Source: Planctomycetota bacterium
Lineage (GTDB): Bacteria > Planctomycetota > B15-G4 > JADJEK01
NCBI GenBank assembly: GCA_016709145.1
Contig: JADJEK010000009.1
Span: 126,368-190,367, forward strand
Direction: 5' to 3'
DNA: 64,000 nucleotides
Both the position numbers and the translations under genes were made by a program. Shown piece by piece: positions 1,880 through 62,695 of the stretch (position 1 is the stretch's first letter; each line of letters opens with the position of its first letter). The notes beneath the pieces were generated by a model. That model made no database searches, was not told the DNA's origin, and saw only the letters and a program-made list of their open reading frames with translations.

Positions 1880-2235
1880 CCGCGCCCGCTGGCCCGCAGG
1901 GCAGGTGGTTTGGGGAGTCCTTGGGCCGGGGGTCGGCGTCCGCCCACGGGATGCTTGCGCGGGCGCTGGCGCGCGAAGCGAGGGGCGTCCCGCGCGGCTG
2001 ACGGGGATTGGTTTTGGATGGGCAGGGGCTTGCCGCGAAGGGCCGAGGAGTTCGTGGATGGGGGCCTTCTTCTTGGGGATCCGGCCGGGGCGGGCAGACC
2101 GCGCCGCGGCTTCCCTGAAGGTTTCGCGGCGGCGAAGCCCACGCGTTCTGTGGAGATGCGGAGGCGCCGTCGCGACCGAAGCCGGCGGGGGGCAGGCCGA
2201 CGGACCGTGGTGGACGGTGCAGGACGAGGCCTCCC

Positions 2236-2692
2236 GGGCCGTCCCGGGCGGCTACCGGCCCGGGCCGTCACCCGGGCCGTCACCGGCCGTCACGCCCGGG
2301 CCGTCCGCCGGGCCGGCGCGTCACCGGCTGGCCCCAGGCCGTCACCCGGGGGGGGAGGCCCCGGGCCGCGCGCGGCCCGGGCCGCCACCACGGCGGGGGT
2401 GCTGTTTGGGTTGTGCCGCGCCCCGCCCCCCCGGGGGGGCGGGGGGTTTGGGCGCGTCACCCCGGCACCCGCCCGGGCCGTCACCCGCCGTCACCCGGGC
2501 CGTCGCGCCGCAAACCGGGCGGGCGGCCACCCCCGGGCTGGCACCCGGGCCGTCACCCGGAGCGGCCGTCACCCGGGCCGTCACCCGGGCTGGCACGGGC
2601 CGTCACCGGGCCGTCACCCGGGCCGTCACCCGGGCTGGCACCCGGGCTGGCACCCGGGCCAGCACCCGGGCCAGCACCCGGGCCACTTCGCT
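2236..2692 (+). repeat. degenerate tandem array of a 12-nt unit CCGTCACCCGGG (variants CCGGGCTGGCAC and CCGGGCCAGCAC), interrupted by G/C homopolymers, directly upstream of the hydroxyproline operon
   Basis: 12-nt periodicity is visible from nt 2236-2340 and again from 2470-2690. The unit is the reverse complement of the array at 54075-54155. Confidence 0.8.
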
Positions 2693-2795: not shown

Positions 2796-4406
2796 ATGGC
2801 ACACGACTCGACATCACTGATGGGTACCTCTTGGGTGGGCGGCCGGCGCGCGGAGGCTGGGACGAGCCCTGTCTGGTTCTCCGCATTCGATCCCGCCCGC
2901 GCTTGTGATCTCGATCCTCCCTTCCTCGCGGCGACGACCGACGATGTCCATGCCGCCATGCGCGCGGCTTCCTCCGCGTTCGAAGCGCTCTCCGTCCGGC
3001 CTCCCCACGAGCGCGCGACCTTGCTCGAGCGGTGCGCCGATGGGTTGCTCGAACTCGGCGACGCGCTGATCGAGCGGGCCTGCCTCGAGACCGGATTGCC
3101 CGGCGCTCGCCTTGCCGCCGAACGCGATCGCACCGTCGCTCAACTGCGCATGTTCGCCGCGCTCGTGCGCGACGGCTCGTACGTCGAGGCTTCGATCGAT
3201 CACGGCGATCCGAAGCGCCAGCCGACTCCGAAGCCCGACGTTCGGCGGATGTTGAAGCCTCTTGGCCCCGTCGTCGTGTTCGGCGCCAGCAACTTCCCGC
3301 TCGCGTTCTCGACGCTCGGCGGCGACTCCGCGTCGGCACTCGCCGCCGGTTGCCCCGTCGTCGTCAAAGGCCATCCCGCGCATCCCGGCACCGGCGAGCT
3401 CGTCACCGACGTCGTCGTCCGCGCCGCGCACTCGCTCGAATTGCCAGCCGGCACGTTCAGCTACCTCCACGCCGGCGGCTCGCGCGAAGTGCATGTCGGC
3501 ATCGAACTGCTACGTCATCCCTCGACGCGCGCGGCCGGATTCACCGGATCGCTCGCGGCCGGCACCGCGCTCGCTCGCATTGCCGCCGAGCGACCCGAGC
3601 CGATCCCGTTCTTCGCCGAGATGGGCAGCGTCAATCCGGTGTTCGTGCTGCCCGCTGTGCTCCGCGACCGCGCCGCCGCGATCGCCGACGCGCTGTTCCA
3701 GTCGTTCACGAACTCCGTCGGCCAGATGTGCACGAGCCCCGGCCTCGTGTTCGTGCCCAAGGGCGAAGGCGCCGATCGTCTCGCTGCCGCACTCACGCAG
3801 CTCGTGCGCGCGGCATCGTCGGCGCCCATGCTGACGCCGAAGATCCGCGCCTCGTTCACCGACGGCGTGCTGCGCTTGAAGAACGTGCCGGGCGTGTTCC
3901 GACTCGCCGAAGTCGACGGCGAGGGCATGAACGCCGGACCGGCGCTGCTCGCGACCACCTACGAGGCGCTGTCGCGCGAACCCGCGATCGCCGAGGAAGT
4001 GTTCGGGCCGGTGCTCGTGCTCGTCGAATGCTCGCACCTCGACGAGTTGTTCGCGTCGGCGAAGCTCGTCCACGGCTCGCTCGCCGCGGCGCTGTGGATG
4101 AGCGACGACGACGGCCCGGCCGCGCACGCGCTGCTCGCCCGACTCGAGAAGATCGCCGGCCGCGTGATCGTGAACGGCATGCCGACCGGCGTCGAAGTGT
4201 GCGCATCGATGGTCCACGGCGGCCCGTTCCCCGCGACCAACCGACCCGAGGCGAGCGCGGTCGGCGCCTCGGCCCTGCGACGCTGGTGCCGCCCGGTCGC
4301 GTGGCAGAACGTGCCGGACAAGCTGCTGCCGCTCGAGTTGCAAGAAGCCAACCCGCGCAAGATCGCTCGCGTCGTCGACGGCGCGGCGGTCGTCGCGCCC
4401 CGCTGA
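2796..4406 (+). CDS. NAD(P)-dependent aldehyde dehydrogenase, probable alpha-ketoglutarate semialdehyde (2,5-dioxovalerate) dehydrogenase
   Basis: 536-aa ORF with the VFGASNFPLAFS and GCPVVVKGHP signatures of ALDH-family KGSADH. First gene of the hydroxyproline catabolic operon. An alternative start at M 2820 is possible. Confidence 0.8.
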   Translation: MAHDSTSLMGTSWVGGRRAEAGTSPVWFSAFDPARACDLDPPFLAATTDDVHAAMRAASSAFEALSVRPPHERATLLERCADGLLELGDALIERACLETGLPGARLAAERDRTVAQLRMFAALVRDGSYVEASIDHGDPKRQPTPKPDVRRMLKPLGPVVVFGASNFPLAFSTLGGDSASALAAGCPVVVKGHPAHPGTGELVTDVVVRAAHSLELPAGTFSYLHAGGSREVHVGIELLRHPSTRAAGFTGSLAAGTALARIAAERPEPIPFFAEMGSVNPVFVLPAVLRDRAAAIADALFQSFTNSVGQMCTSPGLVFVPKGEGADRLAAALTQLVRAASSAPMLTPKIRASFTDGVLRLKNVPGVFRLAEVDGEGMNAGPALLATTYEALSREPAIAEEVFGPVLVLVECSHLDELFASAKLVHGSLAAALWMSDDDGPAAHALLARLEKIAGRVIVNGMPTGVEVCASMVHGGPFPATNRPEASAVGASALRRWCRPVAWQNVPDKLLPLELQEANPRKIARVVDGAAVVAPR

Positions 4407-4413
4407 GGTCGCG

Positions 4414-5361
4414 ATGCACCGTGTCCGCGTCGTCGATTCCCACACCGAAGGCGAGCCGACGCGCGTCGTGCTCGACGGAGCGCCGGACCTCGGCGGTGGA
4501 ACCGTCGCCGCGCAGGCCCGCGTGTTCCGCGAACGCTTCGACTGGTTCCGTGCGGCCGTCGTCAACGAACCACGCGGCCACGATGCGCTGGTCGGCGCGC
4601 TCGTCGTGCCGTCCGTCGAGCGCGACACCGTCTGCGGCGTGATCTTCTTCAACAACGTCGGACTGCTGAACGCTTGCGGACACGGCACGATCGGCCTCGC
4701 GCGGACGCTCGTCCACACGGGTCGCATCGGCGTCGGCCGCCATCGCTTCGAGACGCCCGTCGGCGTCGTCGCGGTCACGATCGACGCGCACGGTGACATC
4801 GAGCTCGACAACGTCGCGAGCTTCCGCCACGAGCTCGACGTCGCCGTCGACGTCGAGCTCGACGGCAGGACGCGCGTCATGCATGGCGACGTCGCGTGGG
4901 GTGGCAACTGGTTCTTCCTCGTCTCCGACCACGGCGAGCCGATCGAGCTCGCGCGCGTCGATCGTCTGACGTCCGTCGCTTGGGCGATCCGCGATGCGCT
5001 CGAGCGCCAGGGAGTGACGGGCAAGGACGGCGGCGTCATCGACCACGTCGAGTTGTTCGGCCCGCCGACGCGGTCCGACTGCGACTCGAAGAACTTCGTG
5101 CTTTGTCCCGGCAAGGCCTGGGATCGCTCGCCGTGCGGCACCGGCACCAGCGCGAAGCTCGCGTGTCTCGTCGCCGACGGCAAGCTCGCGCTGGGTGCGG
5201 AGTGGCGCCAAGAGAGCGTGATCGGCAGCCGCTTCGTCGGCCGCATGCGCGCCGAGCACGGGGCGTGGATCCCGACGATCCGCGGGCAGGCGTTCGTGAC
5301 CGCCGAGTCGACGTTGCTGATCGATCCGGGCGATCCGTTCCGGTACGGCTTCGGGTCATGA
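4414..5361 (+). CDS. 4-hydroxyproline 2-epimerase (proline racemase family)
   Basis: 315 aa. Proline-racemase-family motifs including SPCGTGTSAKLA, which carries the catalytic Cys. 7-nt gap after the preceding gene. Confidence 0.8.
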   Translation: MHRVRVVDSHTEGEPTRVVLDGAPDLGGGTVAAQARVFRERFDWFRAAVVNEPRGHDALVGALVVPSVERDTVCGVIFFNNVGLLNACGHGTIGLARTLVHTGRIGVGRHRFETPVGVVAVTIDAHGDIELDNVASFRHELDVAVDVELDGRTRVMHGDVAWGGNWFFLVSDHGEPIELARVDRLTSVAWAIRDALERQGVTGKDGGVIDHVELFGPPTRSDCDSKNFVLCPGKAWDRSPCGTGTSAKLACLVADGKLALGAEWRQESVIGSRFVGRMRAEHGAWIPTIRGQAFVTAESTLLIDPGDPFRYGFGS

Positions 5362-9094: not shown

Positions 9095-10315
9095 ATGCAA
9101 GATCGCATGAGCCCGTACACGGACCAGGAATTGGAAGCGCTCTTGCGGGACGTCGAATCGGACCGCGTCGAGCGCAAGGAGTCGTTGGGGGGAGACGCGC
9201 CGACCAAGGTCCGGGAAGCCATTTGCGCGTTCGCCAACGACCTCCCAGATCATCGGCGATCAGGTGTCGTCTTCATCGGCGCGACCGACGACGGCCGACC
9301 GGTCGGACTTCCGATCACGGATGAGCTGCTGCGGTTGCTTGCGGATATGAAAACCGATGGAAACACGCTTCCGCCTCCAACGCTCGCCGTCGAGAAGCGC
9401 AAGCTGATGAACTTGGATGTGGCGGTCGTCACCGTGGAACCAGCAGACGCTCCTCCGGTTCGATTCAAGGGGAGGATTCACATCCGTGTCGGGCCGCGGC
9501 GCGCGATCGCGACCGCCCAGGACGAACGTGTTCTCAACGAGAAGCGGCGGCATCGGGATCGTCCGTTCGACACCCGCGCGGTGTCGGTCGCGACCATCTC
9601 GGATCTTGATCGTCGCCGATTCGAGGATGAGTATCTCGTATCTGCGGTCGCGGCGGACGTGCTGGCGGCGAACGAGCGCACGTACGAACAACGACTTGCT
9701 GCTACGAAAATGGTCGTTTCTGCCGACGAGCCCACACCGACGGTCCTCGGAGTCCTGGTGCTCTCGTCGCGCACCCGAGACTTCTTGCCAGGCGCGTATG
9801 TCCAGTTCTTGAGGATCGCCGGCCGAGACTTTGCCGACGACGTCGTCGATGAGCAGACGATCGACGGCGCGGTCGCCGACTTGCTTCGCCGAGTCGAAGA
9901 GAAGTTGATGGCGCACAACCAAACGAGCGTGAGCTTCGCAGAGTCGGTCGTCGAGCGACGGCGATCGACCTACCCAATGGCAGCTCTCCAACAGATCGTG
10001 CGCAATGCCGTGATGCACCGCAGTTATGAGATCACGAACTCACCGATTCGGATCACGTGGTTCGACGATCGAATCGAGATTCTGAGTCCGGGTGGCCCGT
10101 ACGGAGTCGTTACCGAGAGCAATTTCGGCCAGCCAGGGATCGCCGACTATCGGAATCCGAGCTTGGCGGAAGCACTCAAGGTACTTGGGTTCGTGCAGAA
10201 GTACGGCGCTGGAATTGCGACGGCGCGTCGGGCACTCGCAGAGAACGGGAATCCGATCTTCGAGGTCGAGATCACGCAGTCGCACGTCAATTTCACGTTG
10301 CGAGCGCGTTCGTGA
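9095..10315 (+). CDS. COG2865-type ATP-binding protein (AlbA_2/Schlafen-like divergent AAA domain plus RecG-C-terminal-like HATPase_c_4 domain); often annotated as a putative transcriptional regulator
   Basis: 406 aa. N-terminal AICAFANDLP...GVVFIGATDDG segment typical of the AlbA_2 domain. C-terminal LQQIVRNAVMHRSYE segment typical of HATPase_c_4. Lies in a lower-GC island. Confidence 0.65.
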   Translation: MQDRMSPYTDQELEALLRDVESDRVERKESLGGDAPTKVREAICAFANDLPDHRRSGVVFIGATDDGRPVGLPITDELLRLLADMKTDGNTLPPPTLAVEKRKLMNLDVAVVTVEPADAPPVRFKGRIHIRVGPRRAIATAQDERVLNEKRRHRDRPFDTRAVSVATISDLDRRRFEDEYLVSAVAADVLAANERTYEQRLAATKMVVSADEPTPTVLGVLVLSSRTRDFLPGAYVQFLRIAGRDFADDVVDEQTIDGAVADLLRRVEEKLMAHNQTSVSFAESVVERRRSTYPMAALQQIVRNAVMHRSYEITNSPIRITWFDDRIEILSPGGPYGVVTESNFGQPGIADYRNPSLAEALKVLGFVQKYGAGIATARRALAENGNPIFEVEITQSHVNFTLRARS

Positions 10316-15429: not shown

Positions 15430-15616
15430 CGCCAGCTCGGGCGTCGGCTTCACAAACGAGCGAAGCCCCCCTTTGGGAACCCCCGCGCCCTTGAGTCGCG
15501 CGTGAGACTTGACGACGTCCCTTGGCGACGGACTGGTTACTCGGGCGCGCGCGAGCTTGAACCCGAGGGAGAACTTCGGGTCGCGCTTCGCGCTCCGCGG
15601 TGGCGATTGAAGGAGT

Positions 15617-15646
15617 GGGGACAGAGCAGATGAGGGGACTGTCCCC
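15617..15646. repeat. REP-like hairpin type 1 (GGGGACAG-AGCAGATGAGGGGA-CTGTCCCC)
   Basis: Inverted repeat seen in the sequence. Identical copy at 23554-23584. Confidence 0.8.
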
Positions 15647-15664
15647 ACCGAGCTCGACGGCCAT

Positions 15665-15692
15665 GACGGGGACGGAGGCGCGTCTGTCCCCG
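15665..15692. repeat. REP type 2 (GACGGGGACGGAGGCGCGTCTGTCCCCGT), same sequence as the REPs flanking the RAYT gene
   Basis: Exact match to the REP copies at 47774-47803 and 48526-48555. Confidence 0.8.
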
Positions 15693-15757
15693 TTCGCGTC
15701 GGGTCTCGGTCACCGGTCACCGGGACTGCCGTCTCGCGTCCCTCGCACCTGCAACCA

Positions 15758-23553: not shown

Positions 23554-23584
23554 GGGGACAGAGCAGATGAGGGGACTGTCCCCT
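23554..23584. repeat. REP-like hairpin type 1
   Basis: Identical to the hairpin at 15617-15646. Lies between two convergent gene ends. Confidence 0.8.
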
Positions 23585-32507: not shown

Positions 32508-35251
32508 TCCGATCGTCCGCGCGAACCACGTTCGCCGGCGTTGCGTCCGCCATCGCCCTCGCCGCGGGAGTCCTCGCGGCGGGGGCGAGCGCGCAAACGC
32601 CGGCAGCGCCGAGCCCGGCCAAGAAGGCCGATCCGACCAGCGAAGAAGTTCCGTTGCCGGCGCTCGCCGGCTGGAACGGCACGCTCGTGATCGACAACGA
32701 CGTCGGCGTGTGGACGACGCTCTCCGCCGACATCCTGCCCGGGCACGGGTGTCCGCAGATCGTCGGGCTCGACGACAAGGGCCGCTGCATCGTGCTGTTC
32801 TCGTACAGCGGCAAGTGGACGCCGCTGCAGACGGTCGAGGACGGCGAGTGGCTCGGCGCGTTCGAGTTCGTCGATCTCGATCCGCAGCGACCGGGTCGCG
32901 AGATCTACACCGGCGGCAAGCGCGGCAACCTGTTCTGCATCCAGCCGAACGCGCCGCGCGATCCGGCGCTGAAGACGCCGCCGTTCCAGACCGACGTCGT
33001 CGCGCGCTTTCCCGGCGAAGAGCTGCACACGATGGTCGGCGGCGACTTGCTGCCGTCCGAGCCCGGCAACGAGCTGCTGCTGTACACGCTTCACGGTGCG
33101 GCATACCGCCTGAAGCCGCCGCGCGAGCCGCGCGGCATGCTCGTCGTCGAACCGCTCGGCGACGTCGGTGGTCGCGTACGCGAAGCGAAGATCCTGCCGG
33201 CGCGCGCGGGCGAAGCGCCGTGGATCGCGTGCGTGCTCCGTAGCGGTGAGATCCAACTGCAGCGCCTCACGCCAGGCGGCATCGAGCGCAAGACGATCAC
33301 GAAAGAACCGATGGGCTTCGGTCGCCTCGCGCTGCGCAAGTCCGCGGTCGGCGAGCCGGTCGTGTTCTACGCGACGCGCGACGATGGCGTCGTGCTGCGC
33401 TTCGAGGGCAGCCCCGACCGCGACGCATGGACGCGCGAGCTCGTCTACGCCGGGCCGCAAGGACCGCGCGGACTCGCGTGCGGGCGCTTCTCGGCGGATC
33501 CCGACGAAGAGACGATCGCGGTGTTCGGCTACGCGGCGAAAGTGCAATTGCTGTCGCGCAAGCGCGGGCAGCCGTGGCGCGCGGAGACGATCTTCGTCGA
33601 GCGCGACAAGGGCCATTGGCTCGCCGCGGCGGAGCTCGACGGCCGCAATGCGACGGACGAGCTGATCGCGTCGGGCTACGGCAAGCGTGTCGTGCTGCTG
33701 TCGCGACCGCCGGGATACGGCCTCTCGAACGTGCCGACCGACCCGGATCCGCCGCAGCCGCCGACGGTCGATCCGGGCAAAGCCGGCGCGCAAACTGCGC
33801 CGGAGGGCAAAGCCGGCGCGCAAGCTGCGCCGGCGGGCGACGGCGCGCTGCGCGTCGCGGTGCGCGCGCGGTTGCGCGAACCGGGCCGCGTCGACCCGCT
33901 GAAGTACCACGGCGGCTTCGAGACCAAGACGCTCGTCTACGAGACGCTCGTCACGCGCGACGCCGCCGGACGCATCGCGCCGAAGCTCGCGTCGGCGTGG
34001 GAACTCGAGGATGGTGGAGCGACCGTGAAGTTCACGCTGCGCGAGGGCGCGACGTTCCACGACGGCACGCCGGTCGACGCGCAAGCGGTCGCGATGCACT
34101 TCCGCCGCGTGCTCGGCTTGCCCGAGCACGCGTGGTTGCGCGGGCTCGCTCGCGTGCGGTCGGTCGACGTCGACGGGTCGCGCGTGCTGCGCTTCCGCCT
34201 CGACGCGCCGTGCTCGCTGCTGCCGGATCTGTGCGCGGTGAATCCGTGTTCGATCCGCGCGCCGTCGACGCTCGACCGCGAAGGCGAGTTCGTGCGCGCG
34301 ATCGGCAGCGGTCCGTTCAAGGTCGAGGCGGCGGACTCCGACGGCATGCGCTTGGCGTGGACGCGCGGCAAGGCGCGCTCACCGGTGCAGCTCGTGTTCG
34401 CGTCGGGCGCCGCGGCGGACCTCGTCGATCGTGTGCTCGGCGGTGAGTTGGACGTCGTCGCCGACGGTTGGAGCGAACTCGTCGATCGCTCGCGCGTCGC
34501 GGCGTTGAGGGACGATCCGCGCGTGCGCGTGATCGGCGGGCCCGGGTCGTCCGTCACGTACTTGTCGTTCCTGATCCGCGAGGGGCCGACCGCCGACCCG
34601 GCCGTCCGCGCGGCCGTGGCCGCGGCGATCGATCGCGCGGAACTCGTCAAGGACGTCGAGTTCGGCTGCGCGCAGCCGTGCGCGACGTTCGCCGCTCCCG
34701 CTGTCGCCGATTGGCCGCGAGCGACGCCGCGCGCGTCCGCGACGGACGTCGCGATCGATCGAGCGCTCGTCGTCGTCGGCGACGGCGCGACGCGCGACGG
34801 TCGGCTCGCGGGCGCGATCGTGGCGCAGCTCGCGCGGCGCGGAATCGCTGCGCAGGCGCGCGTGCTCGAAGGAGCGGAACTCGCGAAGGCGATCGAAGGC
34901 GGGGAGTACGACGTGCGGATCGAACGAACCTGGGGAGTGCCGTACGACCCGTACCTGTCGTTCGTGAATCGGTTCTCGACGCCGACTACCGGCGCGACCG
35001 CGGCGACGAAGCCGGTTGCCGGGTTCGACGCGGAACTCGCTCGGATCGCGGACGCGTTGCGCGGCGAGGTCGATCCCGCGAGGCACGGGGAGATGTACCG
35101 GAAGGCTCAGGCTCGGATCGAGGAAGCGAGTGTCGTCGTGCCGTTGTTCGTCGCCGAGAGGGTCGGAGTCGTGCGGAGCGGGGTTGGGGAGATTGCGATG
35201 GGGGTGAATCTTTATGAGATCGGGTTGGAGGGGGTTTTGCGCGGGCGGTGA
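32504..35251 (+). CDS. secreted fusion protein: N-terminal beta-propeller-like repeat domain, Pro-rich linker, C-terminal ABC-type solute-binding protein family 5 (DppA/OppA/NikA-like) domain
   Basis: ATGA overlap with the upstream gene. Signal peptide. Repeated hydrophobic-strand motifs (VLFSYSG, EIYTGG, VVFYAT, IAVFGY, LIASGYG). C-terminal LKYHGGFETKTLVYETLV...ASAWELEDGGATVKFTLREGATFHDGTPV matches SBP_bac_5. No permease or ATPase genes adjacent. Confidence 0.65.
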   Translation: MIRSSARTTFAGVASAIALAAGVLAAGASAQTPAAPSPAKKADPTSEEVPLPALAGWNGTLVIDNDVGVWTTLSADILPGHGCPQIVGLDDKGRCIVLFSYSGKWTPLQTVEDGEWLGAFEFVDLDPQRPGREIYTGGKRGNLFCIQPNAPRDPALKTPPFQTDVVARFPGEELHTMVGGDLLPSEPGNELLLYTLHGAAYRLKPPREPRGMLVVEPLGDVGGRVREAKILPARAGEAPWIACVLRSGEIQLQRLTPGGIERKTITKEPMGFGRLALRKSAVGEPVVFYATRDDGVVLRFEGSPDRDAWTRELVYAGPQGPRGLACGRFSADPDEETIAVFGYAAKVQLLSRKRGQPWRAETIFVERDKGHWLAAAELDGRNATDELIASGYGKRVVLLSRPPGYGLSNVPTDPDPPQPPTVDPGKAGAQTAPEGKAGAQAAPAGDGALRVAVRARLREPGRVDPLKYHGGFETKTLVYETLVTRDAAGRIAPKLASAWELEDGGATVKFTLREGATFHDGTPVDAQAVAMHFRRVLGLPEHAWLRGLARVRSVDVDGSRVLRFRLDAPCSLLPDLCAVNPCSIRAPSTLDREGEFVRAIGSGPFKVEAADSDGMRLAWTRGKARSPVQLVFASGAAADLVDRVLGGELDVVADGWSELVDRSRVAALRDDPRVRVIGGPGSSVTYLSFLIREGPTADPAVRAAVAAAIDRAELVKDVEFGCAQPCATFAAPAVADWPRATPRASATDVAIDRALVVVGDGATRDGRLAGAIVAQLARRGIAAQARVLEGAELAKAIEGGEYDVRIERTWGVPYDPYLSFVNRFSTPTTGATAATKPVAGFDAELARIADALRGEVDPARHGEMYRKAQARIEEASVVVPLFVAERVGVVRSGVGEIAMGVNLYEIGLEGVLRGR

Positions 35252-35425
35252 GGGAGGACGAGGGACGAGGGGGACGCGAGGGACGAGGGGGACGCGAGGG
35301 ACGACGAGGGACGCGAGGGACGAGGGGGACGCGAGGGATGAGAGGGACGAGGGGGACGACGAGGGACGCGAGGGATGAGGGGGACGCGAGGGATGAGAGG
35401 GATGAGAGGGACGCGAGGGATCGGA
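35251..35425. repeat. tandem array (about 19 copies) of the degenerate 9-nt unit GGGACGMGA (array A)
   Basis: 9-nt periodicity read directly from the sequence. Begins at the stop codon of the preceding gene. Confidence 0.85.
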
Positions 35426-47512: not shown

Positions 47513-47718
47513 GGGAACTCGGAGAGCGATGCAGGCGGCGAACTGTGGAACCCCGTGGTGGCGGAGAACCACGCAAGAAAATGACTCGGTCCTGCGTGAG
47601 GGGTCAATGATTCGACGATCTCGCGCCTCGATGCGGTCTTTCCGCGCAACGGCTCGGAGGCGGGCCTGGTCAGCGGGGGATCTCCACTCCCAAGACGTTC
47701 CCGCGCCGTCCACCGCAT

Positions 47719-48555
47719 GACGGGGACAGACGCGCCTCCGTCCCCGTCATGCTCGCAGGGCCACGGCCGCCGCGACGGGGACGGAGGCGCGTCTGTCCCC
47801 GTCATGCTGTAACCCCGGGGCCTCGCGTGCGTCTCCTCGGCATGGCACGACATCCACGACTCGTCATTCCTGAGTTGCTCCAACACGTCACCCATCGCGG
47901 CTGCGGCGGGCAGAGGATCTTTCGGGACGACGAAGATCGCCACGCGTATCAAGCGTCGACGGTCTTCCACGCGAACCGACTGGGCATTTTCATTCCCGGC
48001 CACGTCCAGATGGACAATCACGTCCACTTCGCGCTGTTCGTCCCGACGAAGAAGTCTCTCTCCGAGTTCATCCAGCGACTGCATTCCGAGCACGCGCAGC
48101 GCATGAACGCGAAGTACGGCACTTCGGGGCACTTGTTCGGCGATCGCTTCTATTCCGCCTCCGTCGATGACCGGCCGGCGCTCGAGGTCATTCGCTACAT
48201 CGACCTCAATCCCGTGCGTGCGGGCATGGTCGCGCGTGCGGAGGACTTCGTGTTCTCATCCGCTCGGGCGCACGCGTTGGGGATTCCCGATATCGTGACG
48301 GGCGAACTGTGGAAACCGCTGCGCGAGATCGAGAACTACGCGGAGTGGCTCCGCGAAGTGGCCCCGGATCACGAGCGGCGGCTTGCGACCATTCGCTTAT
48401 GCACGCGCCGGAGTCGCCGCATCACGAACCAGTTGATGTTCGGCGATCAACTGCCGCCTCGATGATGCATGACGGGGACAGACGCGCCTCCGTCCCCGTC
48501 ATGCTCGCAGGGCCACGGCCGCCGCGACGGGGACGGAGGCGCGTCTGTCCCCGTC
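47719..48555 (+). mobile_element. REPIN-RAYT unit: REP doublet (47719-47803), IS200-like Y1 (HuH) transposase gene, REP doublet (48471-48555)
   Basis: The two 85-nt flanks are identical. Each is two 30-nt REPs in inverted orientation (GACGGGGACAGACGCGCCTCCGTCCCCGTC and its reverse complement) separated by a 25-nt spacer. Confidence 0.8.
47842..48465 (+). CDS. REP-associated tyrosine transposase (RAYT; IS200/IS605 TnpA-like Y1 HuH transposase)
   Basis: HuH motif HVHFALF. Conserved Tyr region (YIDLNPVRAG) typical of RAYT/TnpA_REP. Start taken at MARHPRL because the upstream ATG at 47749 lies inside the REP. Confidence 0.75.
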   Translation: MARHPRLVIPELLQHVTHRGCGGQRIFRDDEDRHAYQASTVFHANRLGIFIPGHVQMDNHVHFALFVPTKKSLSEFIQRLHSEHAQRMNAKYGTSGHLFGDRFYSASVDDRPALEVIRYIDLNPVRAGMVARAEDFVFSSARAHALGIPDIVTGELWKPLREIENYAEWLREVAPDHERRLATIRLCTRRSRRITNQLMFGDQLPPR

Positions 48556-48566
48556 ATGCGTTCGGG

Positions 48567-49594: not shown

Positions 49595-50632
49595 TTGCAT
49601 GTCATGCCGAAACGGCGCGCCAGAGTACGCCACGACCCACAGGCGGTCAAACCGACGAAATCGCGACGAAAGGCCGCACCGCGACCGCGCGTGCTGGTCG
49701 TCGGGCCGAACAGCGCGATCGACGAAGTCTTCGCCACGCGCGGGTTCTGCCCGCTCGGCGGCGCGCGTGCCGCCCGCTCGTTCGCGTTCGCCGGCGGCAA
49801 GGCGGCGAACGCCGCGCACGTCGCCGCTCTCGAGGGCGCGGAGTCCACGCTGGTCGGCTTCGCCGGCGGTCCGCGCGGGCGAAGGTTCGCGCGCGGTCTC
49901 GTCGAGCGTGGCGTCCGCGGAGCTCTGGTGCGAACCGCCGCGGACACGCGCCGGACGTTCTGCTTCCTCGATGCCGATGGCGCGAACCCCGTCCTCGTCG
50001 TCGAGGACGGTTCGAGAGTCACGCACGACGAAGTCGCCGCGCTCGAGACGAAAGCACGACGCGAGATCGCGCGCGCCGACGTGCTCGTGCTGTCGGGAAG
50101 CGTGCCGCCGGGATGCGCTCCCACGCTGTACGCGCGACTGATCCGCGCCGCGCGCGAGCGCGGCGTCCCGACGGTCGTCGACGCGCACGGCGCCACGCTG
50201 CGCGCCGCGATCGCCGCGACACCGACCGTGATCGTTCCGAACGAGCGCGAGTTCGCGCAATGGCTCGGCCTCGCCATCGTCGACGGCGTCGACGACACGA
50301 CGCTCATCGACGGCGCGCGTGGCTTGCTCGATCGAGGAATGCTCGCGGTCGTCGTCAAGCAGGGCGAGCGCGGCGTTCTCTGCGTCGAGCGCGATCGCGT
50401 GACGCGCGTCGCCGGTCTGCCGCGCCTCGGCAATGCCACCGGATCCGGCGACGTCGTCACCGCGCACGTCGCGCTCGCGCTCGCGCGAAGGTGGCCCGTC
50501 GTGGTCGCGCTGCCGCGGGCCGTTGCCGCCGCCGGGGCGAACCTCGCGCATGAGCAGCCCGCGCATTACCGCGAGCGAGAGGTCTTGGAGTTGATGAGCG
50601 TGGTGGAGGTGCGCAGGGGCGGGGAGGGATGA
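49595..50632 (+). CDS. PfkB-family carbohydrate kinase (1-phosphofructokinase / tagatose-6-phosphate kinase-like)
   Basis: N-terminal VLVVGPNSAIDEV motif. C-terminal GSGD motif (NATGSGD). Divergent from the aldolase gene. Confidence 0.65.
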   Translation: MHVMPKRRARVRHDPQAVKPTKSRRKAAPRPRVLVVGPNSAIDEVFATRGFCPLGGARAARSFAFAGGKAANAAHVAALEGAESTLVGFAGGPRGRRFARGLVERGVRGALVRTAADTRRTFCFLDADGANPVLVVEDGSRVTHDEVAALETKARREIARADVLVLSGSVPPGCAPTLYARLIRAARERGVPTVVDAHGATLRAAIAATPTVIVPNEREFAQWLGLAIVDGVDDTTLIDGARGLLDRGMLAVVVKQGERGVLCVERDRVTRVAGLPRLGNATGSGDVVTAHVALALARRWPVVVALPRAVAAAGANLAHEQPAHYREREVLELMSVVEVRRGGEG

Positions 50633-50845
50633 GAGGGACGCGGGGGATGCGAGGGACGAAGGGGACGACGAGGGACGACGAGGGACGCGAGGGACGAGAG
50701 GGGCGCGAGGGGCGAGGGGCGCGAGGGACGCGAGGGGGCGGAGGGACGAGAGGGACGCGAGGGACGAAGGGGACGCGAGGGGCGCGAGGGACGAGAGGGG
50801 CGCGAGGGGCGAGGGGGACGCAAGGGACGAGGGGGACGCTGGGGA
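50621..50845. repeat. tandem array (about 25 copies) of the 9-nt unit GGGACGMGA (array B)
   Basis: 9-nt periodicity. Overlaps the last codons of the kinase gene and extends into the intergenic region upstream of the ECF sigma gene. Confidence 0.85.
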
Positions 50846-51515: not shown

Positions 51516-53960
51516 GTGACGGACTCGGCGCATCGCGCATTGCCGGACGCATTGTGCGTCGACCTGCTCGGCCGCTTGCTCGCGGACCGTGAGACCGGGA
51601 CGCTCGGTTCGACCGCGCAGTACCAGGCGCTCTATCCCGGATTCGAGAACGCCGTCGCCGCCGAAGTGCATCGCTTCGTCGACGCGTCGCCGCGTGAAGC
51701 CCGCTCCGAGCGCGCGTTGGTCGGTCCGTTCCGGCTCGTGCGCGAACTCGGCCGCGGCGGGCAAGGCACCGTTTGGCTCGCCGTCGACGATCGCATCGGC
51801 CGGCACGTGGCGCTGAAGATCGTCGCGCGCTCGCCGCTGCTCGAAGATCTCGCGCCGCGCTTCCAACGTGAAGCGCGACTGCTCGGTCGACTCGATCATC
51901 CCGGACTCTGTCCGGTCTACGACGTCGGCAGCGACGACGCGGTCGCGTGGATCGCGCTACGCTACGTCGAAGGCGAGACGCTCGCGCATCGGCTCGAGCG
52001 TGGGCCGCTGGCGCGCGACGATGCGTTGCGCGTCGTCGAACATGCGGCACGCGCGCTGCATGTCGCGCACGGGTTCGGCATCGTCCATCGCGACGTGAAG
52101 CCGAGCAACGTGATGCTCGCGCCCGATGGTTCGCCGGTCGTGCTCGACTTCGGCATCGCTCGCTTGGTCGAACGCGAAGAGACGAAAGACGCGCCGGCCA
52201 CGCTCACGGCCACCGGATTCGTCGTCGGGACGCCGGCGTACCTCGCGCCCGAACTCCTCGACGGTTCGGTCCAGCCGGATCCACGCGTGGACGTGTGGTC
52301 GCTCGGCATCGTGCTCTACGAAGCTCTGACGGGTCGACGTCCGTTCCATGGCGCGACGCACCACGCGCTGATGCGGTCGATCGTCGAGGACGACGTCGAT
52401 CTGCCGCACGACTTCGACGACGACCTCGCGACCGTCGTGCGCACCGCGCTGCAGAAGGACCCCGCGCAGCGCTATCGCAACGCGCTCGAGTTCGCAGCGG
52501 ACCTCGAGCGACTCCGCAAGCAGTTGCCGATCCAGGCGCGGCGAACGCCGCCGTGGCGCCGGTTGATGTTGTTCCTGCGTCGAGAGCCGCGTCTCGCGGC
52601 GACGCTCGGAGCGCTCGCCGTGGTCGTGGTCGCGGCACTCGTCGTGACCGGCGTGTTGCTCTCGCGCACGCGAACGACGTTGTCGGCGCTGACGCGGCTG
52701 TCGGATCAGGACGTCGCGAGTCAACTCCTCGCGCGCCAGGACGCGCTGTGGCCGTCCGCGCCGGAGCGCGTGCCGGAGCTCGAAGCGTGGTTGGCGCAGG
52801 CGAACGAACTCCTCGCGCGCGAGCCGCTGCATCGCGCGACGCTGGATGCGAAGCCCGGTGAGCTGGGTCTCGCGGACACCAGTGACGCGTGGATGCGCGA
52901 ACAGATCGCGGCGTTGCTCGACGAGTTCGGGCGGCTCGCCGCGGTCGTCCCGCGCGTCGAGGCTCGGATCGAGGACGCACGCACGATCGACGCGCGGACC
53001 ATCGAGGCGCCGCGCGCGTCGTGGCAGGTCGCCGCCGCGGCCGTCGCTGCCGACGCGCGCTTCGACGGACTCGTGCTCGTTCCGCAGCGCGGATTGGTCC
53101 CGCTCGGCGCCGATCCCGGATCACGGCTCGAGGAGTTCGCGATCGTCGCGACCGGGGCCGTGCCGACGCGCGACCCCGCGACGTCGCGCTTGGTCCTCGA
53201 CGACGCCTCGGCGTGCGTGCTCGTGCTCGTTCCCGGCGGGCGTGTGCGTATCGGCGCCGACGCGAGCTTCGATCCGTGGACGCAGACGTGGGACGGGCCC
53301 GCGCACGAGGTCCGCTTGGATGCGTTCTTCATCGCGAAGCACGAGCTCACGCAAGGTCAGTGGCTGCGCCATGCCGGCGAGAACCCCGCGATCTTCCAAC
53401 GCGGCAGCGGACTGGCGGACGGACCGCTCGCGCTGACGCATCCGGTCGAGAACGTGCGCTGGGACGACTGCGATCGGTTCGTGAAGCAGACTGGACTCCG
53501 GCTGCCGACGGAGTCGCAGTGGGAATACGCAGCGCGCGCGGGGACGACGACGCCGTGGTGGACCGGCGACGAGCCCGAGTCGCTCGACGGCGCGGCCAAC
53601 CTCGCGGATCGCTTCGCGAAGGCGCACGGCGGATCCGCCGAGTGGCGCTACGACGAGTTCCTCGACGACGGCTTCACGAATCACGCACCGGTCGGCACGT
53701 ATCGACCGAACGCGTTCGGGCTCCACGACGTCGCGGGCAACGTCAACGAATGGTGCGACGGGCGGTGGGAGGACTACGCGAAGGTCGCACCGCGCGACGG
53801 CGACGGATTGATCGACGGGAACGAGATCGACTCGACGTTCCGCGGCGGCTCGTACTTCGAGCCGGCGTCGGCGTCGCGCGTCGCGTTCCGGCGTGGCAAT
53901 CCGCGCTACTACCGCAGTTTCGTGGTGGGCTTGCGCGTCGCGCGTGATCTGGAGCGCTGA
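51516..53960 (+). CDS. Ser/Thr protein kinase with transmembrane segment and C-terminal FGE-sulfatase (SUMF1/DUF323) domain
   Basis: Kinase motifs GRGGQGTVWLA, VALK, HRDVKPSNVM, DFG, TPAYLAPE. TM helix LGALAVVVVAALVVTGVLL. C-terminal FGE motifs (NAFGLHDVAGNVNEWCDGRW, RGGSY). Confidence 0.85.
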   Translation: MTDSAHRALPDALCVDLLGRLLADRETGTLGSTAQYQALYPGFENAVAAEVHRFVDASPREARSERALVGPFRLVRELGRGGQGTVWLAVDDRIGRHVALKIVARSPLLEDLAPRFQREARLLGRLDHPGLCPVYDVGSDDAVAWIALRYVEGETLAHRLERGPLARDDALRVVEHAARALHVAHGFGIVHRDVKPSNVMLAPDGSPVVLDFGIARLVEREETKDAPATLTATGFVVGTPAYLAPELLDGSVQPDPRVDVWSLGIVLYEALTGRRPFHGATHHALMRSIVEDDVDLPHDFDDDLATVVRTALQKDPAQRYRNALEFAADLERLRKQLPIQARRTPPWRRLMLFLRREPRLAATLGALAVVVVAALVVTGVLLSRTRTTLSALTRLSDQDVASQLLARQDALWPSAPERVPELEAWLAQANELLAREPLHRATLDAKPGELGLADTSDAWMREQIAALLDEFGRLAAVVPRVEARIEDARTIDARTIEAPRASWQVAAAAVAADARFDGLVLVPQRGLVPLGADPGSRLEEFAIVATGAVPTRDPATSRLVLDDASACVLVLVPGGRVRIGADASFDPWTQTWDGPAHEVRLDAFFIAKHELTQGQWLRHAGENPAIFQRGSGLADGPLALTHPVENVRWDDCDRFVKQTGLRLPTESQWEYAARAGTTTPWWTGDEPESLDGAANLADRFAKAHGGSAEWRYDEFLDDGFTNHAPVGTYRPNAFGLHDVAGNVNEWCDGRWEDYAKVAPRDGDGLIDGNEIDSTFRGGSYFEPASASRVAFRRGNPRYYRSFVVGLRVARDLER

Positions 53961-54074
53961 AGCTCGCACCGCCCGCGCTCACCGAGCACGCCGTCAAGAG
54001 GAGTGCGCGAGCGCGTGGACCCTCGATGACCCTGGCCGAGCCGGGGACGGTCCCGCACCCGTCGCCGCGCTGTC

Positions 54075-54155
54075 CCCGGGCGACGGCCCGGGCGATGGCC
54101 CGGGTGATGGCCCGGGTGACGGCCCGGGTGACGGCCCGGGCGATGGCCCGGGCCT
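54075..54155 (-). repeat. tandem array (about 6.5 copies) of the 12-nt unit CCCGGGTGACGG, the reverse complement of the 2236-2692 array unit
   Basis: Read directly from the sequence. Lies between convergent gene ends. Confidence 0.85.
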
Positions 54156-54219
54156 GCAACGCTTCGGGGCGGAGGATCCTGTTGGACCGCTCCGCCCCGC
54201 ATTGCGTGCTCGAACGAGT

Positions 54220-54450
54220 TCAGCCGGCGTTGCCGATGGCCTCGACCGGGCACTGCTCCATGGCTTCCTTGCACTGCGCCCGCTCTTCGTCGGTCGCCGG
54301 CTGCTTGTAGACCATGTCATGGTCGCCCGCTTCCGACTCCTTGAAGTTGTTGGGGGCGAGGTCGACGCACAAGGAGCACAGAATGCACGACTTGTCGACG
54401 AACCACTGGCCCGGAACGTTGTCTTCCCAGCGTTCACCCGGGTTTGCCAT
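54220..54450 (-). CDS. small single-cluster ferredoxin
   Basis: 76 aa starting MANPGERWEDN. Strong GGGAGGTAAGG Shine-Dalgarno. Cys motifs CILCSLC and CP. Confidence 0.65.
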   Translation of the reverse strand: MANPGERWEDNVPGQWFVDKSCILCSLCVDLAPNNFKESEAGDHDMVYKQPATDEERAQCKEAMEQCPVEAIGNAG

Positions 54451-54622
54451 GAGTTCCTTACCTCCCGGCGGTGTCCGTGCCGGAGCGTTCAGTTCGGGAA
54501 ATGAAAAGGGCGGGAGTCTATCCGCCCTCGGGGCCGGGAAGATAGCTCGGATCGCGGGGCGTGCAAACTTGGGAACAATCCAAATCCGTCCCCTCCGGGG
54601 GCGCAGTCGAGGGTGGTGAGCG

Positions 54623-62584: not shown

Positions 62585-62695
62585 CGAAGGGACGCGAGGG
62601 ACGCGAGGGACGATGGGGACGACGAGGGACGACGAGGGACGCGAGGGACGACGAGGGACGCAAGGGACGCGGGGGACCGCAGGGACGCCTTGGAC
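62585..62695. repeat. tandem array (about 12 copies) of the 9-nt GGGACGMGA unit (array D) in a divergent promoter region
   Basis: Lies between the start of the minus-strand beta-helix gene (62476) and the plus-strand gene starting at 62800. Confidence 0.85.

Follow-up and report, generated by a model that had tools for sequence, protein, structure and literature searches.

A probable family of hypervariable 12-nucleotide intergenic satellites in a Phycisphaerae-like planctomycete

The DNA considered here is a window of 64,000 nucleotides (nt) from a Planctomycetota bacterium (assembly GCA_016709145.1, contig JADJEK010000009.1, positions 126,368 to 190,367), in which the region upstream of a hydroxyproline-catabolism gene cluster carries a long tandem array of a 12-nt unit, CCCGGGCCGTCA. 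This intergenic region, referred to as locus 1 (1668-2795, 1128 nt), is bounded on the left by a + strand gene ending at 1667 and on the right by the cluster itself, which consists of the genes for alpha-ketoglutaric semialdehyde (KGSA) dehydrogenase (ALDH; 2796-4406) and a Pro_racemase-family epimerase (4414-5361), followed by DAO, Fer2_4/Pyr_redox and DHDPS-like genes. The best named homologues of the ALDH come from Phycisphaerae and Phycisphaerales, and the protein is 100% identical over 482 aligned residues to P0123, a protein of an NCBI 'Planctomycetes bacterium' metagenome-assembled genome (MAG); the window has a G+C content of about 70%. A second array of the same family, in reverse complement to the first and 51.6 kb away from it, lies between two convergent genes and is referred to as locus 2. 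Outside the annotated neighbours, the gene map was drawn with a simple GC3-based caller. The features of locus 1, as defined with Tandem Repeats Finder (TRF), unit parsing and alignments, are the following.

1693 to 1850, + strand: conserved single-copy non-coding element in the left part of the intergenic region (blastn, 81% identity to L017 9214-9362; alignment A1; without a match in Rfam)
2236 to 2315, + strand: first block (A) of the 12-mer satellite, which is degenerate and begins at its 5' edge with units of 10-16 nt (TRF and unit parse)
2316 to 2471, + strand: G/C-rich degenerate spacer between the blocks, with scattered CCCGGG cores, G8 at 2348-2355 and a C7G7 palindrome at 2426-2439
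2472 to 2692, + strand: second block (B) of the satellite, of 17.7 copies, with higher-order periodicity of 24 and 45 nt (TRF, repeat search and unit parse)
2659 to 2685, + strand: last two units, which align as orthologues of the two-unit seed GCCGCCACCCGGGCCCGCACCCGGGCC, the whole slot content of the closest relatives (alignment A4 with L021 and L030)
2693 to 2795, + strand: right flank, conserved as far as the ALDH start codon (alignment A4, mean column identity 88% over the two final units and on to the ALDH start), presumably holding the operon promoter and 5' leader
2796 to 4406, + strand: ALDH gene, first in the hydroxyproline cluster

At the level of the repeat itself, TRF recognises two period-12 blocks at locus 1, one of 4.8 copies with 79% matches (2259-2315) and one of 17.7 copies with 76% matches (2472-2684; score 162, and up to 194 at the higher-order periods of 24 and 45), with a G/C-rich stretch of about 156 nt between them that does not belong to the 12-mer repeat. 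Together they amount to about 22 copies, and a parse into units yields seven exact ones, 19 at no more than two edits and 27 only if three edits are allowed. The whole stretch takes up about 40% of the intergenic region (457 of 1128 nt), and the true 12-mer blocks about 24%. Variant units are grouped in runs (CCGTCA, CTGGCA twice and CCAGCA twice), and these runs, together with the 24- and 45-nt periods, point to local duplication, a pattern commonly left by slippage and unequal exchange. At both loci the head-to-tail 12-nt copies go far beyond chance, with TRF scores of 116-194 versus best scores of 46-83 per simulated window in 60 order-3 Markov simulations.

The rest of the locus 1 region is also unusual in composition. 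Every homopolymer of at least 7 nt in the window falls within it, namely C11 (1740-1750), G13 (1867-1879), G8 and the C7G7 palindrome, and these runs may be either real slippage products or consensus errors. The C11 and G13 runs form partly complementary arms 103 nt apart; at the C11 site, the relative L017 has C5, and no G run was seen there. Within the spacer, positions 2396-2410 are a 15-nt copy of GGGGTGCTGTTTGGG from 1848-1862. The single-copy element at 1693-1850 (about 160 nt) accompanies the operon also in genomes that have another upstream gene; a long-range stem plus a GGGGCCGC/GCGGCCCC hairpin is predicted for it, from two distinct sequences that give no power for covariation.

Locus 2 presents a shorter and cleaner version of the same repeat, with the following features.

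51516 to 53960, + strand: gene for a Ser/Thr kinase-FGE fusion, whose 3' end borders the locus 2 slot
54075 to 54153, - strand: second array of the 12-mer family, 6.6 copies, 92% matches and no indels, with the minus-strand units CCGTCA, CCGTCG, CCATCA and CCATCG (TRF)
54166 to 54198, no strand assigned: conserved G+C hairpin GGGGCGGAG...CTCCGCCCC between the convergent genes, also conserved in L033; a probable bidirectional terminator
54220 to 54450, - strand: ferredoxin gene (Fer4_13), convergent with the kinase gene, with its stop at 54220

Two units of this array are identical to the locus 1 consensus. The array follows the kinase stop codon (53960) after 114 nt of unique sequence and precedes the hairpin. 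The locus 2 spacer folds well (z = -5.5) because of the terminator hairpin and of 7-bp hairpins between neighbouring units; the locus 1 array, folded as single-stranded DNA, does not surpass shuffled sequences (z = -0.9). On these points the original prediction, made from the letters of the window, was largely accurate: TRF bears out 12-mer arrays at both places in inverted orientation (2259-2315 and 2472-2684; 54075-54153), the clean reverse-complement array lies between convergent genes as described, here identified as a + strand kinase gene and a - strand ferredoxin gene, the C11 and G13 runs are present, and the genes downstream of locus 1 are those of a hydroxyproline operon. The long degenerate array proposed at locus 1 is real, but the count of more than 25 copies was generous, being reached only at three edits per unit.

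A third 12-mer array was found outside the window, in a 'Planctomycetota bacterium' MAG (L011, 6374-6456; 6.9 copies), with the variants CCGTCA and CCAGCA also seen in the window. It sits in a divergent region about 85 nt before a + strand open reading frame (ORF), and its other neighbour is an ORF which, from its translation, we take to be lysyl-tRNA synthetase-like. The tetranucleotide composition of L011 correlates with that of the window at 0.985, confirmed relatives giving 0.97-0.995 and unrelated high-G+C loci 0.69-0.92, and it is therefore counted in the window lineage. When one genome for each of 185,579 species was scanned for the unit as a dimer or tetramer, 15 loci were obtained, of which L011 alone comes from the window lineage; the other 14 belong by title to actinobacteria and other high-G+C taxa, and the five of them sampled by tetranucleotides showed low similarity. 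A scan of metagenome contigs for the unit returned six loci, none from the window lineage, and a scan of viral contigs for the 12-mer returned none. Across these genome, metagenome and viral scans, the 12-mer unit is rare outside the window lineage.

The 12-mer is a multi-locus family, with at least three loci in the lineage (locus 1, locus 2 and L011), and stands beside the 9-mer and repetitive extragenic palindromic (REP)-like families described below, so that the suggestion of a second short-repeat family was well founded. The three loci share only short flank matches by eye, TGCAG-GCC at two of them and GGCGGTCGTT at two, which are too weak to define a mobile unit. In unit orientation, TGCAG-GCC (the hyphen marking the left boundary of the array) is seen at locus 1 in the form of the relative L021 (window 2216-2222, L021 29-38) and at locus 2 (window 54154-54160, - strand), not in L011, and it may be due to chance. 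Among the metagenome loci, an independent (CCAGCACCCGGG)n array occurs in a different high-G+C bacterium (L038 1600-1664 and L040 609-660; four versus at least five copies), in a divergent region upstream of a gene that, from its N-terminal sequence, presumably resembles hrcA.

The history of locus 1 can be read from orthologous loci, which were reached through protein look-ups and are graded in their nucleotide identity to the window: 95.0% for L030, 90.8% for L021 and 84-85% for L017-L020, L022, L031, L032 and L042. In L030 and L021 the slot upstream of the ALDH gene holds just two units, GCCGCCACCCGGGCCCGCACCC(C/G)GGCC; the left flank is conserved and has GGTGCA(G/T) at its end, and the right flank can be aligned well up to the start codon. 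These two units align to the final two units of the window array, which indicates that the seed is orthologous between the window and its relatives, and the alignments show an extreme length difference at one orthologous slot, of two units versus about 22. A collapsed array is unlikely in L030 and L021, since the two-unit stretch is below typical assembly k-mer length and has unique flanks on both sides; the two genomes derive, moreover, from independent read sets. Given that the nearer and the farther of these relatives both carry two units, the expansion of about 430 nt is most simply taken as derived in the window lineage, and the alignment is most simply read as growth in place from a resident two-unit seed.

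The relatives at 84-85% identity have different contents in the ALDH slot, namely two or three direct copies of a REP-like unit of about 50-60 nt, built on the palindrome GACGGGGACGGAGGCGGGTCTGTCCCC and varying in number between assemblies. In these genomes the left edge of the slot (GGTGCAG) is aligned and the right edge, CCCCTTCT, is shared by eye and not by alignment; another gene also lies upstream, a tRNA-synt_1b gene in divergent orientation. For the strain of the window itself there is a further MAG contig (L001, GCA_020851675.1; 99.9% identity), which begins 1.3 kb downstream of the array. Exact look-ups of the window ALDH protein and of P0123 gave no contig, so that locus 1 is covered by no other assembly of this strain.

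Turnover of the same kind is seen at locus 2, where the relatives keep the kinase gene, the terminator hairpin and the ferredoxin gene and differ in the whole stretch from the stop codon to the hairpin.

Window: the 12-mer array, preceded by 114 nt of unique sequence
L034 and L035 (kinase protein identity 92%): array of the 9-mer GAGGGAYGC from the stop codon on
L043 (kinase protein identity 87%): array of the 9-mer GAGGGAYGC from the stop codon on
L033 (kinase protein identity 87%): four copies of a 10-nt unit (AAGGCAGTTC-like)

These orthologous spacers show that one repeat family has replaced another in the same slot between relatives.

The families that alternate with the 12-mer are also found in the window. 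The 9-mer family (GAGGGACGC) forms three arrays there (35250-35420, 50624-50839 and 62588-62688), all G-rich on the + strand, and further arrays in relatives (L034 1-166 and 3276-3322; L043 5013-5065). Their edges abut or supply the TGA stop codon of the upstream gene (35249-35251 and 50630-50632). Between the PfkB and extracytoplasmic function (ECF) sigma genes, the 9-mer array is present in L034 and missing in L043, which has a 59-nt spacer. With a GGG tract every 9 nt, the 9-mer has the canonical spacing of a G-quadruplex. Two viral contigs of lower G+C from IMG/VR, UViG_3300044691_000349 and UViG_3300035704_000013, carry long (GGACGCGAK/GGCCGCGAK)n arrays at or near contig ends, which may or may not be related to this 9-mer family (array positions L044 14059-14289, L046 4-51, L045 1-318 and L047 1676-1869); they follow genes that are apparently homologous by their last residues, and may be an in-frame repeat tail.

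The REP-like family is represented by palindromes of the form CATGACGGGGAC-N12-GTCCCCGTCATG, which lie as inverted doublets at 47716-47806 and 48468-48558 around a gene (47842-48465) with a Y1_Tnp (IS200-like) domain (E = 1.5e-10). By their sequence and arrangement, the doublets and the gene can be assigned to the class of units formed by REP sequences and REP-associated tyrosine transposases (RAYTs). The family is dispersed, with copies at 15665 (in 15617-15691), at 47722/47774 and 48474/48526 (in the doublets) and at 23554-23583, and the palindrome is the one that fills the ALDH slot of the relatives at 84-85%. The short-read contigs of the relatives often end inside 9-mer or REP arrays, as real repeats would give. 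One more slot, between the genes for a 432-aa protein and DUF8575, holds a 36-nt hairpin-containing tandem repeat in relatives (by TRF, 4.2 copies over 148 nt at L017 20988-21135 and a 62-nt array at L018 21015-21076) and REP-like palindromes instead in the window (15430-15757).

Considered together, the arrays are best explained, with a probability of roughly 0.6, as a lineage-specific, multi-locus family of hypervariable non-coding intergenic satellites, of the variable number tandem repeat (VNTR) type, in a Phycisphaerae-like planctomycete. According to this explanation, the arrays occupy intergenic slots with conserved flanks and a rapidly changing content. At locus 1, a two-unit seed, CACCCGGGCC-N2-CACCCGGGCC, located about 105 nt upstream of the ALDH start, would have been enlarged to about 22 units in the window lineage, in an expansion that may also have introduced the G/C homopolymers and the small duplicated fragment. 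Growth would most likely proceed by replication slippage and unequal recombination, helped by the self-complementary CCCGGG core of each unit, through which adjacent units of a single strand could form short G+C hairpins and thereby become misaligned with ease. Spread to other loci would most likely be by copying, through ectopic gene conversion or template switching at break repair. The arrays probably lack a conserved sequence-specific function, any effect on neighbouring genes being incidental, via spacing or DNA structure. Species-specific families of short-unit intergenic satellites have been documented in other prokaryotes (PMC6749651).

Several points weigh against this satellite explanation. 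Simple slippage fails to account for the presence of the same 12-mer, and of the same 9-mer, at several unrelated loci, and it leaves the different families found in one slot of different relatives unexplained, so that a dispersal step is needed. The two-unit motif, moreover, is kept about 105-130 nt upstream of the start in all three genomes of clade B, and from this conservation it may be a small operator-like site. Lastly, the large locus 1 array is known from one assembly only, and if that assembly is long-read based, its irregular units and homopolymers could in part be consensus errors.

The last point can be extended to an explanation of locus 1 as an assembly artefact, in which a long degenerate array and its homopolymers were mis-assembled or mis-polished. 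It would fit with the confinement of the window's long homopolymers to this one intergenic region, with the many irregular units that are short by one to three bases from C or G runs, with the occurrence of the large array in a single assembly and with the fact that the same-strain MAG L001 stops short of the region. Nevertheless, the arrays at locus 2 and in L011 are short, clean and internal to long contigs, the seed is found in two independent relatives, the other repeat families break short-read contigs where expected, and variant units in runs would not arise from an artefact, all of which makes this explanation very unlikely. Even less credible is the proposal that the two arrays act as a recombination substrate for inversion of the 52-kb segment between them. 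The arrays do bound the segment in opposite orientation and have about 79 nt in common, at 87-91% identity to a common unit series, and homologous recombination between them is physically possible; 79 nt of imperfect homology is, however, a poor substrate for RecA, and the segment carries ordinary metabolic genes. Every relative that covers either junction has the arrangement of the window (conserved element, slot and ALDH gene in L017, L021 and L030; kinase gene, slot, terminator and ferredoxin gene in L033), and relatives are without the 12-mer at one or both sites, so that the pairing of the arrays is recent and lineage-specific. Among the 31 ORFs scanned against Pfam, which are not all of those in the window, no invertase or site-specific recombinase was detected, the only DNA-rearranging enzyme being the Y1 (RAYT-like) transposase at 47842-48465. 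The inversion put forward in the original prediction thus has no support. A reading of the arrays as coding, for a Pro/Gly-rich peptide (PGPS or GDGP), hardly deserves consideration: open frames do cross both of them (for example 1698-2783 + and 53893-54504 +), but at about 70% G+C in the genome, and 78-85% in the array regions, spurious ORFs of some length are to be expected, the locus 2 ORF runs over the ends of two real genes, and relatives are without the sequence. The codon-position G+C of the array region (0.77/0.80/0.78, versus 0.72/0.53/0.86 in the ALDH gene) has no periodicity, and on this ground the coding reading was dropped; the irregular unit lengths at locus 1 would, in addition, disrupt any reading frame. 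The arrays are non-coding.

Two explanations that ascribe more to the arrays are somewhat less remote, while still unlikely. One regards them as cis-regulatory, the repeats binding a regulator or nucleoid protein or setting a spacing, with the copy number tuning the adjacent operon as in a contingency locus. The position of the locus 1 array, which ends about 104 nt before the ALDH start, and that of the L011 array relative to its + strand gene are suggestive of such a role, as are the retention of the two-unit core in the clade-B genomes and the large copy-number differences between relatives, which recall phase-variable loci. The locus 2 array, on the other hand, is placed where two genes converge and no promoter is present, and the genes beside the three loci have no function in common. 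Scans of 1600-2900 for promoter and terminator consensus sequences found none, although a sigma-70-like consensus may not suit planctomycetes. The idea of a regulator-binding array, also part of the original prediction, is not supported in the sense of a conserved one, the same operon having two units in relatives at 95% and 91% identity and REP elements instead in those at 84-85%. The other explanation, held to be about as doubtful, is that the repeats are actively installed, an enzyme placing or exchanging them at particular slots, either the resident Y1/HUH RAYT-like transposase, with single-stranded DNA as its substrate, or a repair polymerase that copies ectopic templates. This would make sense of a single slot that holds REP, 12-mer, 9-mer or 10-mer repeats according to the relative, with shared edges, and of the 9-mer arrays that abut or include the upstream stop codon at four sites; a REP/RAYT unit is present in the window, and the CCGTCA of the 12-mer unit is also found at the REP end (CCCCGTCATG). 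The 12-mer is nevertheless not a REP-type palindrome and does not lie beside the transposase gene, no target-site duplications or consistent flanks were found across the three 12-mer loci, and the alignment of the locus 1 array to a resident seed favours growth in place. Furthermore, about a quarter of the longer intergenic regions hold arrays on the rough gene map, so that slots could be co-occupied without targeting. In its most ambitious form, in which the slots near gene ends are serviced by an active, possibly enzyme-driven process (a HUH/Y1 RAYT-like transposase or ectopic-template break repair) that exchanges 12-mer, 9-mer, 10-mer and REP cassettes, it is a distinctly improbable proposal. 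If true, enzyme-driven spread would bear on how bacterial satellites disperse, a question raised in PMC6749651, and active exchange would turn satellites into mobile, interchangeable bacterial elements rather than products of local slippage.

The arrays were also compared with other classes of repeats and structured elements. Searches of Rfam at gathering and permissive thresholds gave nothing significant, the sole sub-threshold match being to Guanidine-II (E = 0.18). REP and REPIN elements are imperfect palindromes of about 20-40 nt in inverted doublets, whereas the 12-mer is palindromic only in its 6-bp CCCGGG core and is repeated in direct orientation; the palindromes that flank the Y1_Tnp gene are of the GGGGAC...GTCCCC type and not the 12-mer. 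Clustered regularly interspaced short palindromic repeats (CRISPR) were rejected as a candidate, because the 12-nt units abut without spacers and CRISPR repeats measure 23-55 nt and alternate with unique spacers of similar length. An iteron or centromere-like (par, rep) array was likewise rejected, as the neighbours are the ALDH, kinase and ferredoxin genes and the array is missing at the orthologous sites of relatives. Of the 47 CCCGGG sites in the window, 28 are inside the two arrays, and outside them the motif is not depleted (19 observed versus 20.3 expected); since it is not avoided there, a link of the arrays to a restriction-modification system is unlikely. Elsewhere in the window, the DHDPS-like gene is separated from that for a tRNA methyltransferase by an insert of lower G+C content (0.60-0.63), at about 8.9-11.3 kb, with a SLFN_AlbA_2/HATPase_c_4 gene at 9095-10315 and one resembling CbiA/ParA (seen in L001 and L021). 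The insert is missing in L017 and L022 and may be a small acquired island.

From a general perspective, the arrays belong to a known class, that of bacterial intergenic satellite or VNTR families, an ordinary feature, and the present evidence does not amount to a new regulatory or recombination system. They mark the positions at which assemblies break in this lineage and would serve well for strain typing. The comparison also shows that satellites in a compact bacterial genome can grow tenfold within about 5% of sequence divergence and, what seems most worth attention, that fixed intergenic slots can be refilled by unrelated repeat families.

Among known systems, the closest analogy known to us would be the short tandemly repeated repetitive (STRR) sequences, heptamers of heterocystous cyanobacteria reportedly described by Mazel and colleagues in 1990. 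Both are dispersed intergenic arrays with few short unit types, lineage-specific, without an assigned function and useful as strain markers; the STRR unit is of 7 nt and not 12, lacks the CCCGGG palindrome and occurs in another phylum. The VNTR minisatellites of Mycobacterium tuberculosis, or mycobacterial interspersed repetitive units (MIRUs), are used for strain typing and have units of 40-100 bp, often within operons and with small overlapping ORFs. The present arrays resemble them as intergenic tandem repeats whose copy number varies between close strains, and differ in that the unit is of 12 nt and non-coding. With phase-variable contingency loci upstream of promoters, such as the TAAA tract of Neisseria nadA, they have in common a hypervariable tract just upstream of a gene; on the other hand, one of the arrays lies between convergent gene ends, and the units are longer than usual.

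REP elements and bacterial interspersed mosaic elements (BIMEs), considered as a class together with their RAYT transposases (Di Nocera et al. 2013, PMC3733652), are likewise short, G+C-rich, intergenic, structure-forming and clustered, whereas the 12-mer has a palindrome of only 6 bp, is repeated directly head to tail and does not flank a transposase gene. Finally, prokaryotic satellites have been surveyed in Burkholderia, Chloroflexus aurantiacus and Mesorhizobium ciceri, the last with an octamer family, and their birth has been attributed to replication errors with possible transposition (Subirana & Messeguer 2019, PMC6749651). The unit sequence and the host phylum of the arrays described here are new with respect to that survey, which does not address the replacement of one family by another in a single slot; in their short head-to-tail units, their intergenic position, their several loci per genome and their restriction to one species or genus, the satellites of both studies are alike.

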